DNA of 34,362 nt, from contig CAYSEZ010000002.1 of the NCBI GenBank assembly GCA_964430375.1, forward strand, positions 3,591-37,952, given 5' to 3'. Of this stretch, positions 4,210-34,362 are shown piece after piece; the first letter of the stretch is position 1, and each line of letters begins with the position of its first letter. The notes under the pieces were generated by a model. It had not been told where the DNA came from. It worked only from the letters and a program-made list of their open reading frames with translations, and ran no database searches. A program made the translations under genes and the position numbers. The DNA is from an uncultured Mycoplasma sp. (GTDB lineage: Bacteria > Bacillota_I > Bacilli_A > RF39 > UBA660).

Positions 4210-6072
4210 ATGAAACTAAAGGAAAAATTAAAAGAAAATAAAAATTTAAAAACTATTATTTTAATAATTATAGCTATATTAGTAATAACAGGTATAACAT
4301 ATGCTAGTTTTAATATAAATTTTGAGGGTTTAATAAATATAAAAACTGATAGTCCCTCTATTAGTTTAACATATGAAGAACCTCCAACAGCATTAGAACA
4401 AACTAATTCTATATTAACTAGAGAAGAGTATAAAACAAGTAATGATTATTTTGAATTTAAAGTATCTAGTACTAGTAGTATTATTTATAATTTATATTAT
4501 AATATTTATTTAACTGAAAAAAAAACTAATACTTTATCTAAAGATAATTTATATATTTATTTAACTAAAGTAGATAATAATATTGAAGAAGAAGTATTAG
4601 AACCTACTTTAGTAAGTAGTTTAAAAAAACACTCTAATTATGATAATAGTTATATAATAACTTCTGATACTTTTGAGTTTTTAACTGAAACAAATGAAAC
4701 AAAAGAAATAACATATAGATTAAGAATATGGAATGAACCAAATAATTCATCTGATTCAATAACAATTAAAGGGGGTATATACGAATATACAGTAAATGTA
4801 GATACTTACGAACCAATAACTGGTTTATCAGTAATAAAAAGTCAAGTTAAAACAACAAATATAAGTTATAAATATGTAAATGGCGCAAATAAAACAATAG
4901 ATGGAGTAGCATATAACACAGATGATAATGGAGTATTCCTATATGATGGAACAGATGATAATGGAGGAAGTTATCCAATATATTACTATAGAGGTAATGT
5001 TACAAACAATAATGTAATATTTGGAGGATTCTGTTGGAAGATCGTCAGAACAACATCAACTGGAGGAATAAAACTAGTATATAACGGAACACCATCTAAT
5101 GGAGCATGTAGTAATACAGGAACATCTAGTCAAATTAGTACTAGTGCATTCAGTAGTAGTTATACCTCCCCAGCCTATGTAGGATATATGTATGGAACAG
5201 TATATGAATATAGTAGTAAATCACCAACAGGTACAATAATATATGGAAATGATGTAACATATTCTGATGGAACATATACATTAGTAGATACAACAACATC
5301 AACATCATGGAGTAATGACAGAACAACCCTAGCAAATGGATATCACTATACATGCTTTAGTAGTGATACAACATGTACAAGTGTATATTATATAATATAT
5401 TTTGGTAACTTAAGTACTGCATATTATCTAACATTTACAAATGGAGATAATCTAGATAGTGCAAAGACAAAGATGTATACAAATACAACAAATAGTACAA
5501 TCAAAGCAACAATAGATGATTGGTATAAAACTAATCTAACAAGTTATACAAATTATCTAGAAGATACAATATTCTGTAATGATAGGTCAGATGCAACAAG
5601 CACATCTTATAGTGGCCCTTTAGCAAGTAAAGATACAAATAATGGTTATTCATATTTTAAAAGCTATGAAAACACAGAAAATGGAACGCCAAGCCTAGAA
5701 TGTACAAATCAAAATGATAGATTTAGTTTAAGCACAAATAACGGAGGAACAAGTGGATATGGAAATAATGCATTAACATATCCAGTAGGATTACTAACCT
5801 TAGATGAAGCTGAACTAGCAGGTTCACAGTTTGTATCTAGTCATAGTAATTATTATCTATACACAGGACAATATTTCTGGGTTCTTTCCCCTGCTGGGTG
5901 GGGCAGCGATTGGGCTGACGGTGGTCGTGTGTACTCGAGTGGTGTCCTGGACTGGGTCAACGTGGATGGCAGTGGCGGCGTGCGTCCTGCCGTTTCGCTC
6001 CAACTTGGAACAGAGTTTGAAGCAGGAACAGACGGATCTGCGAGCAATCCATATGTTGTGAAAACTTCGTAA
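4210..6072 (+). CDS. Secreted or anchored surface protein with an N-terminal signal/anchor (KTIILIIIAILVITGITYASFN). Its N-domain is shared with ORF 28719..32402. The C-terminal module YFWVLSP...GVRPAVSL looks lectin-like.
   Basis: Long ORF with an SD (agagagtg) and a charged-then-hydrophobic N-terminus. Motifs shared with the 28719 ORF are TGITYA, NYFEF/NYFDF, LVSSLKKH/LVSSLNKH and YRLRIW/YRLRAW. Confidence 0.8.
   Translation: MKLKEKLKENKNLKTIILIIIAILVITGITYASFNINFEGLINIKTDSPSISLTYEEPPTALEQTNSILTREEYKTSNDYFEFKVSSTSSIIYNLYYNIYLTEKKTNTLSKDNLYIYLTKVDNNIEEEVLEPTLVSSLKKHSNYDNSYIITSDTFEFLTETNETKEITYRLRIWNEPNNSSDSITIKGGIYEYTVNVDTYEPITGLSVIKSQVKTTNISYKYVNGANKTIDGVAYNTDDNGVFLYDGTDDNGGSYPIYYYRGNVTNNNVIFGGFCWKIVRTTSTGGIKLVYNGTPSNGACSNTGTSSQISTSAFSSSYTSPAYVGYMYGTVYEYSSKSPTGTIIYGNDVTYSDGTYTLVDTTTSTSWSNDRTTLANGYHYTCFSSDTTCTSVYYIIYFGNLSTAYYLTFTNGDNLDSAKTKMYTNTTNSTIKATIDDWYKTNLTSYTNYLEDTIFCNDRSDATSTSYSGPLASKDTNNGYSYFKSYENTENGTPSLECTNQNDRFSLSTNNGGTSGYGNNALTYPVGLLTLDEAELAGSQFVSSHSNYYLYTGQYFWVLSPAGWGSDWADGGRVYSSGVLDWVNVDGSGGVRPAVSLQLGTEFEAGTDGSASNPYVVKTS
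5896..5985 (+). other. Candidate DGR-type variable region (VR) inside the 3' end of CDS 4210..6072
   Basis: Of 30 codons, 21 are NNY and the other 9 (ggg, tgg, gtg, tcg, ctg) contain no A. Nt 5881-6000 have A=10/120 and about 63% GC. Every A is at codon position 1 or 2. Confidence 0.45.
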
Positions 6073-11956: not shown

Positions 11957-12521
11957 TTTTTATTCCTCCATATTCTTTAATTATATTTATATAATCTACA
12001 CTAGGCATTATTTTTTGTTTTATTAAATAACCTTTATCCTTTATATAATCTATTGGTATAGATTTTCTATCATTATTATCTATAAATTCTAAAAAGTCTT
12101 TAGCAAATAATAAGTATGTTTCTTCTAATTTAGTAAATCTAATTATTAAAAAACAAATACCTTTTTCTTTTTCTATTCTTCTTAAATGATTTATTTGATG
12201 TTTATGAATATTAGCAAGTGGAAAACTTGTTTTACTTTTTGTTTCTTTTGCCTCAAAATCGACATAATGTGAGTCATATATACCATTATAATCTGTAGTA
12301 GAGGGTTCTAAAAAGTAAGCATCTACTATTTTTGCTCCTAGTTGTTTTACAACTTGTATAGGAGTTGGTTTTTTATAAATAACTGCGATATTATTATCTA
12401 AATAATATTTATTAGTTTCATTTATTTCATGTTCTAGAGTCATTCCTCTATTAGCATAATTTTTATATTTGGTATTACTTTTAGTAATGTTGTTTGGATA
12501 TTTTATCAAATTAATCACCAT
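11949..12521 (-). CDS. recU: Holliday junction resolvase RecU
   Basis: A 190-aa protein with the YANRGMTLEHEIN....Y N-terminal region. It overlaps the ponA start by 8 nt. Confidence 0.8.
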   Translation of the reverse strand: MVINLIKYPNNITKSNTKYKNYANRGMTLEHEINETNKYYLDNNIAVIYKKPTPIQVVKQLGAKIVDAYFLEPSTTDYNGIYDSHYVDFEAKETKSKTSFPLANIHKHQINHLRRIEKEKGICFLIIRFTKLEETYLLFAKDFLEFIDNNDRKSIPIDYIKDKGYLIKQKIMPSVDYINIIKEYGGIKNE

Positions 12522-23226: not shown

Positions 23227-23302
23227 GGATTGTTAGCTCAGTTGGTAGAGCAACTGACTCTTAATCAGTGGGTCTAGGGTTCGAGTCCCTAACAGTCCAC
23301 CA
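23227..23302 (+). tRNA. tRNA-Lys (anticodon CUU)
   Basis: The cloverleaf folds by hand. The acceptor stem is ggattgt/acagtcc and the D arm is gctc-agttggta-gagc. The anticodon stem is actga/tcagt with loop ctCTTaa. The T arm is taggg-ttcgagt-cccta, and a CCA end is encoded. Confidence 0.93.
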
Positions 23303-28548: not shown

Positions 28549-28578
28549 TACTTGCAAAAGTATCTTTTTTTTGATATG
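28549..28578 (+). terminator. Rho-independent terminator after truA
   Basis: The stem ggtactt-gcaa-aagtatc is followed by T8. Confidence 0.55.
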
Positions 28579-28607
28579 ATTAATACATAAAAATAGAAAA
28601 GGAGGAT

Positions 28608-28643
28608 ATGTGTAATAAAGTTTACACATTAATTGACAAATGA
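28608..28643 (+). CDS. 11-codon upstream ORF (MCNKVYTLIDK) with a strong SD. Its TGA overlaps the ATG at 28640 (ATGA).
   Basis: aaaaggagga lies 1-2 nt from the optimal spacing before the ATG at 28608. The stop at 28641-28643 overlaps the ATG at 28640-28642. Confidence 0.35.
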   Translation: MCNKVYTLIDK

Positions 28644-28684
28644 AAAGTGTAAAATTATGTAAAGCCGGGGGGGGGGTCTTATAA
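28640..28684 (+). CDS. Probable true N-terminus of the LRR surface protein (MKSVKLCKAGGG...). In this sequence the G10 tract puts it out of frame and it stops after 14 codons.
   Basis: With 9 (or 12) G the frame continues as ...GGGSYKQKLKKIFPVILLLLLITLVTGITYA into ORF 28719..32402. That restores a charged-then-hydrophobic signal like the one in the paralogue at 4210. Confidence 0.5.
   Translation: MKSVKLCKAGGGVL
28667..28676 (+). repeat. G10 homopolymer (candidate slipped-strand phase-variation tract)
   Basis: Ten consecutive G in a roughly 25% GC genome, located between the candidate ATG and the long open frame. Confidence 0.9.
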
Positions 28685-28718
28685 ACAAAAATTAAAAAAG
28701 ATCTTTCCTGTAATTCTA

Positions 28719-31700
28719 TTGTTATTACTTATTACATTAGTAACAGGTATAACATATGCGATATATAATGTAACATTAAATGGTGATTATAACTCTATAA
28801 CTACGGGACTTGTATCAATGAGTTATACAGAAAGTACTAATGTTATAAGTATAGAAGATGCATTACCGATGTCTGATGAAGAAGGAAAAGTAAGTAGTAA
28901 TTACTTTGATTTTAGTGTGACATCAAATTTATCTTTAGGACAAAATGATCCTAATACAACACTTAATTATTTAATAGAAATAGAGCCTTTGGTGCAGGCA
29001 CCTGGTTATTATTTAAATGAAAATGCAACAGAAGAACAGATAAATCAGTGTATAATAGATTTTTTAGATGCTATGGAAATTACTGAAGACAATGAGGAGT
29101 ATGAAGAAGATTATCTAATAGTTAAAGATTTATGTTCTGGACAACCTGTTGGAGAATTTGGTGGTTATTCATTACAAGATTTTGTGGATATTGCCAATGA
29201 CGATTCTTCTCTCTCTGATTATACCTTTGTTTCTATGTTATATTTGAGTATTGTGGAGCCATCTGGAGTAGTAAATGCTGTTCATGAATGGACAGCTAAG
29301 AAAAATCCAACAGAAGAAGAAATTAACAAATGTATTGCATGGGGATTAGAACAAAGTGGCACAACAGAAGAAGATGAAGATTATGAAGAAACATATTCTA
29401 ATAATAAAACACTTTGTTCTGGCGGAAAAGTTGATGGATATACTTTACAATTTGAGATAGATATGATTATGAAATATAATCCTGATGCAATTGATTTTAC
29501 TTCTTTAGCAGAAACAGGAATAATAGAAGGACAAAAAACTGAAGATGGACTTTATGCATTAAGAGATAATCAAATAAAAGTATATCTAGAAGATATAACA
29601 AATGATAGGGTTATTGTAAATTCAAAATTAGTTAGTAGTTTAAATAAACATGTATTATATAGTGCTAATCATGTTCATGAATATGGTACTGATAGTATAA
29701 CAACTAATTATAGATTAAGAGCATGGGTAGATTATGATACAGATGCATCTAATTGGAGTGAAACTAATAGATATGAATATAAGTTTAGAGTTAATATTAA
29801 TGGTGATGTAAAAAAAGAATCTTTAGTATGTTATACTACAGAACAAATAACAGATGATGATAGTAATGTGATAGGTGTTGCAATAACTGGATATAATGAA
29901 GCATGTGGAACTAATGTAGAAATACCTGAGACATATTCTTATGTACCAGTAGTAGCTTATAGTTTAGTAGAAAATCCAACACAAGAAGCTATAAATAATT
30001 GTACACTTGCGTTTTTAGAGTTAGATGATGAATTTATAACATATGCAAAAGCTTGGTGTAGCGGAAAAGAAATAGATGGTATGTCTCTAAAATTACTATA
30101 TTCCAGTTCCAGTACAACAGTGATAAATCTTTTAAAAGATACAGGTATGCTAGAACCTTTATATGGAGCAAAGGTAGTGGATTATCCAACAACTGAAGCA
30201 ATTAATAATTGTACAACAGCCTTTCTTGATTATGAAGGAATAACTGAAGGAGATAGCGAATATAAAGAAGCATATTCTGTTTATAATACAATATGTTCTG
30301 GAGGAACATATCAAGGAATGAGTTTAAATATGTTATTATCTAATTTAGAATATGCTGCTGTGTTTGTCCCTATATTAGCAAATACTGGTATTTTAGAATT
30401 TGGGCAAGCTTCAACAACAGAAACACAAACTTATCCGGTATTAGAAATAAGAGATTCTGCTTTTGAATCTAGTAATTTAACTAGTGTTAAAATTTCTAGT
30501 AGTGTAACTACAATAGGCTCTAAAGCATTTTATGATAATAAATTAACTACTATATCATTATCAGATAATGTAACAAGTGTAGGTGATGGAGCATTTACTA
30601 AAAATAGTTTACCTGAATCTATTGCATATATTTATGCTAGATCTGATAGTGATTCAGATGGAGTAGCAGAAATAAATAATACTAAATTAGTAAGTTATGG
30701 AGGAAATCAGACTGATTTTAATGTTCCTGATACGGTAACTACAATTGGAAATTATGCTTTTGATTATTCAAGTTTTTCTGATGATAAAATAGTTGAAGCT
30801 GAAATTAAAAGAAATTGTTTTACAACAAGTGGTAGTTCTATAACAGGTTATACATGTACTGATTTACAAAATGTAGTAATACCAGAAAAAATAGGTAATT
30901 ATTCGATAACAACAATAGGAAGCCAAGCTTTTTATCAAAAAAATTTAAAAAGTGCAAAAATTCCTGCGACTATAACATCTATTGATGATACAGCCTTTAT
31001 TTATAATTATTTTATAGATTTTATTGAAGTAGATAGTAATAATACAGTTTATGATAGTCGTGATAATTCTAAAGTATTGATAAAAACTTCAACTAATCAT
31101 TTAATGTATGGTTCTAATTTAGGGAAAGTACCTAATGGAGTTACATCTATAGGTGGGTTAGCATTTTTTATGATGAATTTGGAAGAAATTGAAATTCCAG
31201 AAGGTGTAACATCTGTAGGAGTTATGGCATTTTCTTATAATAATTTAAAAAGTATAAAAATACCTAGTACATTAACTTCGTTGGACTATAATGGCGTACT
31301 TGCTTTTGCCTTTAATCTTGATATAGAAAGTATAGTAATTGACCCTGGTAATACTGTGTATGATAGTAGAGATAATTCCAATGCAATAATTAAAACATCA
31401 ACAAATGAAATAATGTTAGGTTCAAATTCTACAATTATACCAAATACTGTGACAAGTATAGCATCAAGTGCTTTTGCAGATTTAAATTTAACTGAAATTG
31501 AAATCCCAGATAGTGTAATCACAATAGGATATCGTGCTTTTTCAGGTAATAATTTAGTTAATGTAACATTAGGAAAAAATGTTAAAACAATTGGAGACCG
31601 TGCTTTTAGGTATAATGATATAGTGTCTATTAATTTGCCATCAAGTTTAACCTCAATTGGAGCTTATGCATTTCAAGATAATAATATTGAAAGTGTAGTA

Positions 31701-32402
31701 ATTCCTAATAGTATAACTACAATAGGAAACTATGTGTTTGATGAAAATAATTTAAAAAGTGTTACTATTCCCTCTGGCGTGACTTCAATAGGAACCTATG
31801 CATTTGGAGATAATGAATTAACCAGCGTGGAAATTCCAAATACTGTAACAAGTATAGGAAACTATGCATTTTATAATAATAACTTAACTAGCGTAACAAT
31901 GTCTGATAATGTTACAACAATAGGAAGCGGTGCATTTCGTAATAATAGTTTAACAAGTATAACTTTACCAAGTAAATTAACTGCAATAAAAGATTCTTCA
32001 TTTTCTGGTAATAAATTAACAAGTGTAACTATTCCAAGTAGTGTAACTTCAATCGGTATAGATGCTTTTTATAATAATAAATTAACAAGCATAACAATTC
32101 CAAATAGTGTAACAACAATTGGAAACTATGCATTCCAATCTAATAGTTTAACTAGTCTAACACTAGGAAATGGCGTTACTTCAATAGGAAACTATGCATT
32201 CCAATCTAATAGTTTAACTGATGTAATAATACCAAGTAGTGTGACTTCAATTGGAGATAAAGCTTTCTATAATAATAAATTAACTAGTGTTAAAATAAAG
32301 GGTAAATCATCTTCTAGTGGGTTTACTACATATGGAACTAATATATGGGGATGGGCAAGTGGATATTCAGATTCTAATATAGTATGGAATTATACTGAAT
32401 AA
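28719..32402 (+). CDS. Large BspA-type leucine-rich-repeat (LRR_5-like) surface protein. It is a paralogue of 4210..6072 in its N-domain. The frame is open from 28644.
   Basis: It shares the TGITYA/YRLRAW N-domain with the 4210 gene. Four Cys-pair modules are present. About 25 repeats of the type IPxSVTSIGxxAFxxNxLTSV lie at about 30430-32290. The TTG start at 28719 has no SD. Confidence 0.8.
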   Translation: MLLLITLVTGITYAIYNVTLNGDYNSITTGLVSMSYTESTNVISIEDALPMSDEEGKVSSNYFDFSVTSNLSLGQNDPNTTLNYLIEIEPLVQAPGYYLNENATEEQINQCIIDFLDAMEITEDNEEYEEDYLIVKDLCSGQPVGEFGGYSLQDFVDIANDDSSLSDYTFVSMLYLSIVEPSGVVNAVHEWTAKKNPTEEEINKCIAWGLEQSGTTEEDEDYEETYSNNKTLCSGGKVDGYTLQFEIDMIMKYNPDAIDFTSLAETGIIEGQKTEDGLYALRDNQIKVYLEDITNDRVIVNSKLVSSLNKHVLYSANHVHEYGTDSITTNYRLRAWVDYDTDASNWSETNRYEYKFRVNINGDVKKESLVCYTTEQITDDDSNVIGVAITGYNEACGTNVEIPETYSYVPVVAYSLVENPTQEAINNCTLAFLELDDEFITYAKAWCSGKEIDGMSLKLLYSSSSTTVINLLKDTGMLEPLYGAKVVDYPTTEAINNCTTAFLDYEGITEGDSEYKEAYSVYNTICSGGTYQGMSLNMLLSNLEYAAVFVPILANTGILEFGQASTTETQTYPVLEIRDSAFESSNLTSVKISSSVTTIGSKAFYDNKLTTISLSDNVTSVGDGAFTKNSLPESIAYIYARSDSDSDGVAEINNTKLVSYGGNQTDFNVPDTVTTIGNYAFDYSSFSDDKIVEAEIKRNCFTTSGSSITGYTCTDLQNVVIPEKIGNYSITTIGSQAFYQKNLKSAKIPATITSIDDTAFIYNYFIDFIEVDSNNTVYDSRDNSKVLIKTSTNHLMYGSNLGKVPNGVTSIGGLAFFMMNLEEIEIPEGVTSVGVMAFSYNNLKSIKIPSTLTSLDYNGVLAFAFNLDIESIVIDPGNTVYDSRDNSNAIIKTSTNEIMLGSNSTIIPNTVTSIASSAFADLNLTEIEIPDSVITIGYRAFSGNNLVNVTLGKNVKTIGDRAFRYNDIVSINLPSSLTSIGAYAFQDNNIESVVIPNSITTIGNYVFDENNLKSVTIPSGVTSIGTYAFGDNELTSVEIPNTVTSIGNYAFYNNNLTSVTMSDNVTTIGSGAFRNNSLTSITLPSKLTAIKDSSFSGNKLTSVTIPSSVTSIGIDAFYNNKLTSITIPNSVTTIGNYAFQSNSLTSLTLGNGVTSIGNYAFQSNSLTDVIIPSSVTSIGDKAFYNNKLTSVKIKGKSSSSGFTTYGTNIWGWASGYSDSNIVWNYTE

Positions 32403-32417
32403 TATAAAGGAGATTTT

Positions 32418-32825
32418 ATGAAAAAGATAAATATTAAAAATAAAAAATTATTTGCTATTATAGGTATTGTTATAATACTTATAATTACTATATTAATTGT
32501 AGTGGTATCAAATAATAAAAAAGAATTAAAAGAACAAGAAGATAGTAATTTTACTATTGAAGAGTTAAATAAAAAAATATTTAATTCTTCTTATGAGTTA
32601 TATACTGATATGGATTCTGCATTACTTTTAAGTGGATTATTTACTAAAGTAATAAATAATAATAAAGAAGAGGATCATATTATAACAATTGTTTATAATA
32701 ATAAAGAGATAATTAAAGAAGAAGATATATTAAAAATAAAAGATAAAATTAAAAATAGTGATGATATTAATATATCATTAGAATATGACGCAGATGGTTA
32801 TGTAAATAAAGTTATATTTAATTAA
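32418..32825 (+). CDS. Small N-terminally anchored hypothetical protein
   Basis: A 135-aa ORF with an SD (aaaggagat) and a KKLFAIIGIVIILIITILIVVV anchor. It starts 15 nt after the LRR gene. Confidence 0.6.
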   Translation: MKKINIKNKKLFAIIGIVIILIITILIVVVSNNKKELKEQEDSNFTIEELNKKIFNSSYELYTDMDSALLLSGLFTKVINNNKEEDHIITIVYNNKEIIKEEDILKIKDKIKNSDDINISLEYDADGYVNKVIFN

Positions 32826-32828
32826 AAA

Positions 32829-32835
32829 GGGGGGG
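32829..32835 (+). repeat. G7 homopolymer immediately after the stop of ORF 32418..32825
   Basis: Read directly: aaaaagggggggttggg. Confidence 0.85.
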
Positions 32836-33175: not shown

Positions 33176-34362
33176 ATGCTTATAGAATTTAGTGTTAAGA
33201 ACTTTTTATCTTTTAAAAATAAAGTGACGTTATCTATGGAAAAAGGTAATGGTGATGAAAACTTAGATAATATAATATCTACTAATAATGTAGATTTACT
33301 TAAAACTGCTGCCATATATGGAGCAAATGCTTCAGGTAAATCAAATATATTAAAAGCTTTGACTTGTGCAATATTAATGGTTAGAAATTCTAGTTTAATA
33401 CCAGTTGGAGGTAAATGGACTTTTATAAAGCCATTCTTATTTGATAAAGTAAGTAAAAATAAGCCAAGTGAATTTGAATTTATATTTATAGCAAATAATG
33501 TTAAGTATAGATATTTCTTTAGTGTTGATGCAAATAGAGTTTATGATGAAGTATTAGATGCTTATTATAGTCAAAAGCCAACTAATATTTTTACAAGAAC
33601 TAAAACTAATACTTATGAATTTAATAATGATAAAAATAAATTAGAATCATTATCAACAAATAATACAGAAAATAAATTATTTTTATCAACTGCTACTACT
33701 TGGAATTATGATAAAACAAAAGATGCATATTTATGGTTTGCTAATTCTATAGATACTTATGATTCGTTTGATAACATAGCTGATAAAGATTTAATAGATT
33801 ATAGTAATGGTGATGAGAATTTAAAAGAATTTGCTTTAAAATTATTAAAAGAAGCAGATATACTTATAAAAAATATAACTGTTGATTATGAAGAAGAAAT
33901 GGATAGTACAATGATTGATATCTTAGTTCCACCACTTGCAAGAAATGGTGATAAATTTAAAATTAAAAATGTTAATATTGAACTTGAACATGAAGTTATA
34001 GATGATAGTAATAATAAATACACTTATAAATTAAATTTTACTGAAGAATCATCAGGAACAAGAGTGTTATTTGCGTTTGCCCCATTCTTAAAAAGAGCAT
34101 TTGAAACAACTAAGGTTATTGTAGTTGATGAACTAGAAAGAAGTATGCATCCTGCTTTAGTAGAGTTTATAGTTAAGTTATTTAATAATAAAGAAATTAA
34201 TAAAGCTAATAGCCAGTTGATATTTACAACACATGCTACGAACTTATTAAATTTAGAGTTATTAAGAAGAGACCAAATATGGTTTACAGAAAAAAATCCA
34301 GACAATGGAGTTTCAGATTTATATCCACTTGATTCGTTCTCAGTTAGAAAAGATGAAAATAT
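33176..34362 (+). CDS. AAA_21/ABC-type ATPase of the abortive-infection/defence-associated kind (partial; runs off the window end)
   Basis: The ATG follows aggaggag. The frame has no stop through nt 34362 (hand-translated). Motifs are Walker A GANASGKSN, signature-like ESSGTR, Walker B VIVVDELERSMHP, the H-loop region QLIFTTHATNLL and RRDQIWFTEKN. It is missing from the ORF track because it has no stop. Confidence 0.8.
   Translation, partial: MLIEFSVKNFLSFKNKVTLSMEKGNGDENLDNIISTNNVDLLKTAAIYGANASGKSNILKALTCAILMVRNSSLIPVGGKWTFIKPFLFDKVSKNKPSEFEFIFIANNVKYRYFFSVDANRVYDEVLDAYYSQKPTNIFTRTKTNTYEFNNDKNKLESLSTNNTENKLFLSTATTWNYDKTKDAYLWFANSIDTYDSFDNIADKDLIDYSNGDENLKEFALKLLKEADILIKNITVDYEEEMDSTMIDILVPPLARNGDKFKIKNVNIELEHEVIDDSNNKYTYKLNFTEESSGTRVLFAFAPFLKRAFETTKVIVVDELERSMHPALVEFIVKLFNNKEINKANSQLIFTTHATNLLNLELLRRDQIWFTEKNPDNGVSDLYPLDSFSVRKDEN

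Follow-up and report, generated by a model that had tools for sequence, protein, structure and literature searches.

The 34,362-nt stretch analysed here (hereafter the window; contig CAYSEZ010000002.1, positions 3,591 to 37,952 of the forward strand, from an uncultured Mycoplasma sp. of the GTDB lineage RF39) carries a homopolymer of ten G between ATG 28640, the most likely start codon of a leucine-rich-repeat (LRR) surface-protein gene, and the segment encoding the signal or anchor of its 1253-aa BspA-type product. We propose, with a probability of roughly 0.75, that this G10 tract is real, selectively maintained and hypermutable, and that it acts as a slipped-strand ON/OFF switch of the gene. 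Replication slippage would gain or lose one G. At G9 or G12, ATG 28640 would be in frame with the 3.7-kb body and give a preprotein whose charged tail and three or four Gly residues are followed by a K-rich segment and then by a hydrophobic anchor; at G10, G11 and G13, translation would stop after 14-18 codons and the protein would not be exported or made. The sequenced consensus, G10, would represent the OFF phase, from which one deletion would lead to ON. The same switch appears to belong to a leader common to a large paralogous surface-protein family in related uncultured low-GC gut Bacilli, so that a population could vary which members are displayed.

The run lies at 28667-28676 on the forward strand, 27 nt past ATG 28640, and is the proposed slippage site. 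A first-pass annotation made from the letters alone had placed it in a genome of about 25% GC; a composition count gives 24.3% for the window. No other run of G or C exceeds seven. C runs of five or more do not occur, and the next longest G run, a G7 at 32829-32835, is the sole other one above five. From base composition, 1.2e-4 G/C runs of at least ten would be expected in the window, and the longest G/C run was eight or shorter in all 300 first-order Markov simulations of it. GGG makes up just 26 of the 524 Gly codons (5%) across the window genes, so that three or four GGG in a row is unlike Gly coding and the run is not its by-product. The G10 tract is not due to chance. Its length also exceeds the roughly 7-8 units from which a repeat in an open reading frame (ORF) or promoter is regarded as slippable.

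A script that tested upstream starts found that, at the window locus, only the frame of ATG 28640 reaches the tract unblocked. At G10 this frame yields a 14-aa peptide, MKSVKLCKAGGGVL, and then meets a TAA, exactly as the first-pass annotation had read it. Past the tract, 1241 stop-free codons follow in the +1 frame relative to ATG 28640. The annotation had taken this long frame to be open from 28644, which has to be corrected to 28653, since the frame reads GTG at 28647-28649 and TAA at 28650-28652. Its reading of TTG 28719 as the first usable start of the long frame, lacking a Shine-Dalgarno (SD) sequence and lying in the middle of the hydrophobic signal, was borne out by translation. A product from there would begin MLLLITLVTGITYA...; because the codon sits within the hydrophobic segment and has no SD, it is unlikely to be the real start.

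Removal of one G or addition of two, which had been predicted to restore a complete signal, indeed leads in silico to MKSVKLCKAGGG(G)SYKQKLKKIFPVILLLLLITLVTGITYA..., the translated protein being 1253 or 1254 aa long. When the tract was varied in silico from G7 to G14, G9 and G12 gave these full-length products and all other lengths gave peptides of 13-19 aa (18 aa at G11). A change of one unit (+1/-1) can hence flip the product in silico between full length and early stop, the behaviour of a contingency locus. The repaired N-terminus opens with a charged tail and a Gly stretch; a K-rich segment, a hydrophobic segment of ~20 residues and a conserved module then follow. Its predicted tail reads MKSVKLCKAGGGSYK..., with a predicted mature N-terminus after ...GITYA, and MKSVKLCKAGGG is similar to the tails ..NKCSGGGGKLQNKIKK and ..FSLGGGGQFNSKFKK of relatives. 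From the sequence we infer that slippage occurs at the window's own locus, that ATG 28640 is used and that there is a selective reason for keeping the tract.

Homologous tracts and alleles in relatives

Four other assemblies hold homologous genes with a poly-G of 8-13 at the same leader position (Table 1; related contigs are designated L and their proteins P), and a DNA alignment of the leaders places the tracts in positional homology. In each tabulated relative locus the poly-G is the sole G/C run of seven or more. Frame states were assigned by a script that checked every upstream start codon against the downstream ORF: in the window, in L002 and in L004/L005 no upstream start is in frame, yet intact ORFs of 593-1241 codons follow. 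The frame in which the tract and its flanking bases are read changes from one paralogue to another (NKCSGGGG, EQMFGGGH, FSLGGGGQ), which indicates that conservation acts at the DNA level and not on the peptide. In the closest homologues, either the N-terminus has poly-Gly at the corresponding position, or the call begins at an internal Met (MSYTES...) and the signal is missing. Interrupted in-frame tracts were also found, GGGAGGGGGT in L001, GAGGGTGGG in L011 and GGGGAG in L009. These copies are locked on, the anticipated outcome for a tract once selection for switching lapses.

Tract length also varies within species and within genes. L002 and L003, contigs of one species from different samples (Hadza and ERZ27287474), are 100% identical over the 3,038 bp upstream (Mur ligase, PLPC, SRP54 and leader), and the first difference between them is G13 versus G12. 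Alleles that share a 90%-identity protein cluster were also compared. P0480 matches residues 65-714 of P0001 at 100% identity, but is called from an internal Met in 15 contigs, and P0483 (99.4% identical to P0001) has GGGG in place of the GGGD of P0001. P0481 has an MFGGGGK start from the second ATG, implying G11; P0478 (3 contigs) is a truncated form of P0006; and P0473 and P0487 represent a single gene whose two start codons read the tract in two frames. This allele pattern is best read as the product of a slippage-prone tract, and an error at a stable site would not explain it. This length polymorphism is that of homologous loci in relatives; for the window's own locus, exact protein look-ups, a contig scan with the tract flanks and a search through TruA homologues found no second copy.

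The first-pass annotation had suggested comparing other isolates or MAGs as a check on its proposal of a slipped-strand ON/OFF switch in the OFF state, for which it named a homopolymer sequencing error as the alternative. Tract lengths do differ among the homologous loci of relatives, and the conserved tract (8, 11, 12 and 13), the G13/G12 contig pair and the allele forms all support that proposal.

The two contigs of the G13/G12 pair differ in a further respect. The first ~320 bp of the gene are identical (L002 4846-5170; L003 3039-3360), after which the sequences diverge completely, one continuing into an LRR body and the other into a body of diversity-generating retroelement (DGR) type. This suggests that recombination has exchanged the bodies of these genes downstream of a shared leader and N-terminal module.

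Table 1. Features at the 5' end of the LRR gene in the window, and poly-G tracts in homologous leaders
Feature	Position in window	Strand	Tract	Frame state or remark
Promoter-like TTGCAA-17 nt-TATGAT, TG upstream (extended -10)	28552..28580	+		Putative function, from a consensus scan
Shine-Dalgarno-like AAGGAGG	28599..28605	+		Sole SD of the leader; ATG 28640 lies 34 nt downstream
Upstream ORF MCNKVYTLIDK-stop (11 codons)	28608..28643	+		ATG 2 nt past the SD; TGA overlaps ATG 28640 (ATGA)
ATG	28640..28642	+		Best candidate for the start codon of the LRR gene; sole start with a frame open to the tract
Intact open frame	28653..32402	+		1249 codons plus stop; N-terminal family module, insert region, six BspA-type LRR_5 matches
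K-rich n-region and hydrophobic anchor/signal SYKQKLKKIFPVILLLLLITLVTGITYA	28677..28760	+		Read from ATG 28640 only with G9 or G12
Premature TAA	28682..28684	+		First stop encountered from ATG 28640 at G10
TTG	28719..28721	+		First ATG/GTG/TTG of the long frame; inside the hydrophobic segment, no SD
Tract, window	28667..28676	+	G10	Out of frame
Tract, L002			G13	Out of frame
Tract, L003			G12	In frame
Tract, L004, L005			G13	Out of frame
Tract, L007			G8	In frame
Tract, L012			G11	Ambiguous
Tract, L013			G12	Ambiguous
Tract, L014 (same locus as L006)			G13	In frame
Tract, L008			G12	Remnant leader; the gene downstream has a start of its own

Other explanations for the G10 tract

Several observations weigh against the proposed switch. 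Exact look-ups of the window LRR protein (from the TTG and from the MSYTES starts) and of TruA found no record, and the sole same-species contig found (L026, TruA 99%) ends 74 nt before the tract. L004 and L005 come from two samples and share the same G13, and the LRR-type relatives P0002 (12 contigs), P0009 and P0013 are seen solely as truncated calls; switching may therefore be slow, or the OFF state strongly favoured. L012 and L013 are OFF from their SD-served ATG and in frame with an SD-less ATG further upstream. In the window, ATG 28640 has no SD of its own, and the sole SD serves an upstream ORF (uORF) that is blocked by TGA and TAA. If the switch operates as proposed, ribosomes would reach ATG 28640 either directly or by termination-reinitiation after this SD-served 11-codon uORF.

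It is unlikely that the assembly simply miscounted the homopolymer and that the true tract is G9 (or G12), with the gene ON; even then the tract could still be hypermutable, with only the OFF call being wrong. Most platforms make errors in long G runs, a perfect N-terminus is only one base change away, and the breaks of relatives' assemblies around family genes (L026; L020-L024) suggest a region that is hard to assemble. However, 45 A/T runs of at least seven are found within intact ORFs, which indicates an assembly with no general homopolymer problem. Independent assemblies of relatives are likewise out of frame, with G13 in L002, L004 and L005 and with L004 matching L005 across two samples, and truncated calls recur in 15 and 12 contigs. 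Such consensus states are thus common and reproducible in the family.

A second alternative, which we consider quite improbable, is that the gene is dead: its 5' end would have decayed through loss of the SD-linked start, stops in the old frame and a frameshift, and the G run would be a leftover. The SD-adjacent ATG 28608 is in the body frame at G10 with TGA and TAA intervening, as such decay would predict; the lack of an SD at ATG 28640 points the same way, as do about 24 extra bases between a conserved ACAAATG motif and the tract, relative to the leaders of L007 and L002. The leaders of L014 and L009, however, also have an SD and a short uORF before an SD-less main start. Moreover, 1241 stop-free codons at 24% GC would not last long without selection, and together with the strong LRR_5 match of the product (see below) they argue for a gene that is maintained and not decaying. 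Decayed tracts in relatives carry point mutations, whereas that of the window is a perfect G10, and one slip restores a tail like those of functional relatives.

Expression despite the frameshift, with RNA polymerase slippage or ribosomal frameshifting setting the level, or with TTG 28719 giving an unexported protein, deserves very little credence: transcriptional slippage, established on long homopolymers for A/T runs, is possible in principle at G10, but genomic length differences between alleles and samples were observed directly and make transcript-level slippage alone insufficient, and the TTG start lacks an SD, while a product begun there would be missing the charged n-region of its signal.

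The encoded protein, its leader and its surroundings

The product of the LRR gene matches Pfam LRR_5 (PF13306) in six stretches with E = 5.1e-123 and 405 bits against a cut-off of 27.7, and is a BspA-type leucine-rich-repeat protein. A surface location is predicted from the sequence. The conserved module behind the anchor (NSITTGxVSMSYTESTNVIS...YRLRAW...YKFRVNING) defines a large family. A profile of its first part retrieved 2,469 cluster representatives at E <=1e-3 and 541 at <=1e-10, of which only a subset carry the tract; one metagenome-assembled genome (MAG) has at least 12 copies of the module. AlphaFold modelled a homologous N-terminal module with a pLDDT of 88.6 as a beta-sandwich preceded by a single long helix (residues 3-34). 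A Foldseek comparison of this model with the PDB returned only generic beta-sandwich matches (TM <=0.28), and an NCBIfam search found no family for the module. A relation to TasA/SipW was considered and dropped, the SipW-type signal model reaching E = 0.096, below the cut-off, and on the paralogue only. This paralogue, at 4210-6072, starts MKLKEKLKENKNLKTIILIIIAILVITGITYA, as the first-pass annotation had stated, has no tract, and shares the module distantly with the LRR gene (35% over 66 aa).

Relatives of the surface-protein family are found in MAGs labelled "Bacilli bacterium", in Candidatus Onthousia and in Clostridium sp. CAG:451; the GC content of the "Bacilli bacterium" MAG lineage is about 24-29%. 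The nearest LepA (95% identical) and the nearest TruA (99% identical) both come from a Logan run, and TruA relatives at 84% and 77% have a Na/Ala symporter downstream instead of a family gene. The run SRR10277277 holds the same species as the window. In relatives, contig breaks recur within family genes or immediately ahead of them, as seen for L020-L024 of MAG JAZNOG01 and for the end of L026, which corresponds to window position 28593. The family genes are assembly hot spots, and their OFF copies are annotated as truncated proteins with no signal.

Relatives have a TTGAAA/TTGTAA-type box at the position in the leader alignment equivalent to that of the promoter-like element of the window. 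The uORF is in the body frame at G10, but is shut by TGA 28641 and TAA 28650. The same TAA rules out that genetic code 4 (TGA = Trp) joins ATG 28608 to the body. The first 22 nt of the uORF form a perfect 8-bp hairpin, ATGTGTAA/TTACACAT, by RNA folding, and the L008 leader begins with a stretch that aligns to ATGTGTAA. The uORF may provide translational coupling to ATG 28640 or be the relic of an older start. An Rfam search gave no match in the leader, its sole match in the window being a tRNA at 23227-23299. In L008 itself, a G12 at 1258-1269 lies in an apparent remnant leader (ATGTGTAAACAAATCTATGTTC-G12), ~240 nt upstream of the family gene P0011, which has its own SD and start; this tract may be a relic or a transcription-level element.

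Some family members are subject to a different kind of variation. In L001, 18 of 20 substitutions between a variable repeat (11959-12085) and a template repeat (12366-12491) fall at template adenines, with an Avd-like ORF next to follow. In L006 (6246-7593), P0012, a gene with a G13 tract, is followed by bAvd and RVT_1 genes. By these signatures, family members in relatives are DGR targets, which makes the family a good candidate for a host- or phage-facing surface. The C-terminal domain of the window paralogue at 4210-6072 is of the type seen in the DGR-target relatives (...YFWVLSPAGWGSD...GVRPAVSL). No DGR template repeat or reverse transcriptase was found in the window, and the LRR gene, whose C-terminus differs, was rejected as a DGR target.

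Two start codons in different frames lie upstream of the tract in some relatives (1421 and 1453 in L014; 217 and 236 in L012), and dual starts are also seen in the protein calls, as in P0473 (MLTKQIFVWGGGK...) versus P0487 (MKKSQKNVNKTNIRMGGGGK...) and in P0001 versus P0481 (MFGGGGK...). Two of the three tract phases may yield a full-length protein with different cytoplasmic tails. We tentatively consider, while leaning against it, a family-wide three-state leader in which tract length would pick tail A, tail B or OFF, and in which a cassette of promoter, leader, anchor and module would be fused by recombination to interchangeable bodies, either LRR or a DGR-diversified lectin-like domain. If true, three layers of surface variation would be stacked in uncultured gut Bacilli, namely slippage, cassette exchange and retroelement mutagenesis.

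Two scans for the tract elsewhere were set aside. A metagenome-contig scan with the flanks of the window tract and a variable gap gave one match (L025), a chance hit in an unrelated high-GC contig. A viral-contig scan for ACAAATGTTC-G8 gave two matches, neither informative for the surface-protein family, the first being a chance palindrome in a contig of 65% GC and the second an unrelated small ORF with a G19. On the IMG/VR contig L028 (6709-6831; 36% GC), GAACAAATGTTC plus G19 opens a small hydrophobic ORF (MLEQMFGGGGGG...) that adjoins an integrase gene; the flank motif is common to the L002 and L007 leaders, and the viral contig is unrelated.

Within the window, the G7 at 32829-32835 begins 4 nt past the stop of a small membrane-protein ORF (32418-32825) and is followed by a 350-nt non-coding stretch. 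Further downstream, an AAA_21 ATPase gene (33176-34360; AbiEii/OLD-like, PF13304, E = 1.4e-35) continues past the window's end and may be part of a defence system.

Comparison with known systems

Homopolymer phase variation is textbook knowledge for a few pathogens and, to our knowledge, hardly charted in uncultured gut commensals. Homopolymer-controlled surface genes also occur in Helicobacter, Neisseria and Haemophilus. In the opa genes of Neisseria, CTCTT repeats lie in the region coding for the signal peptide, and in Mycoplasma hominis vaa and M. fermentans p78 a poly-A lies in the 5' coding region. These three resemble the arrangement proposed here in that the repeat follows the start codon and precedes the export signal or mature part, so that phase decides export; they differ in repeat unit, organisms and protein families.

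In the present metagenome-only lineage, a poly-G switch would reside in the shared leader of a family with at least 2,469 cluster representatives. Gene callers systematically mis-annotate its OFF copies as N-terminally truncated, signal-less proteins, and the tracts could mark population "phasotypes" readable from metagenomic reads. The mechanism is that of a classic contingency locus; what is new is the lineage and the position of the tract in a leader that many members of a large modular family have in common. To this can be added two observations, possible dual-start leaders and the occurrence of the tract alongside DGR mutagenesis and body swapping in relatives.

A close mechanistic parallel is Campylobacter jejuni, in which poly-G loci likewise carry G8-G13 in the 5' part of the ORF in an AT-rich genome, switch ON and OFF by frameshift, and occur as many loci per genome in mixed states in genes for surface structures (PMC8355987). 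Campylobacter poly-G contingency genes switch at 1e-4 to 1.6e-3 per division (PMC8355987). In contrast, the host here belongs to uncultured low-GC Bacilli, the gene family is another one, the tract lies in a leader shared family-wide, and switching is proposed from sequence comparison.

In Ca. Mycoplasma girerdii, BspA-like proteins vary by repeat length in metagenomic reads (PMC5476646). As in the present case, large BspA-like LRR paralogue families were found by genome-resolved metagenomics, repeat-length frameshifts truncate the proteins, and OFF is often the majority state (PMC5476646). There, however, the repeats are mostly dinucleotides with read-level frequencies, whereas here a mononucleotide G tract precedes the signal anchor and is seen in assemblies only. 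In Gardnerella nanH3, the length of a poly-C tract varies within populations and gives a full-length or truncated protein (bioRxiv 10.1101/2020.09.16.300947). This is likewise a homopolymer in the ORF of a surface protein of a Gram-positive mucosal commensal, but it concerns a single gene of a high-GC Actinobacterium, whereas the tract described here belongs to a leader that is family-wide.

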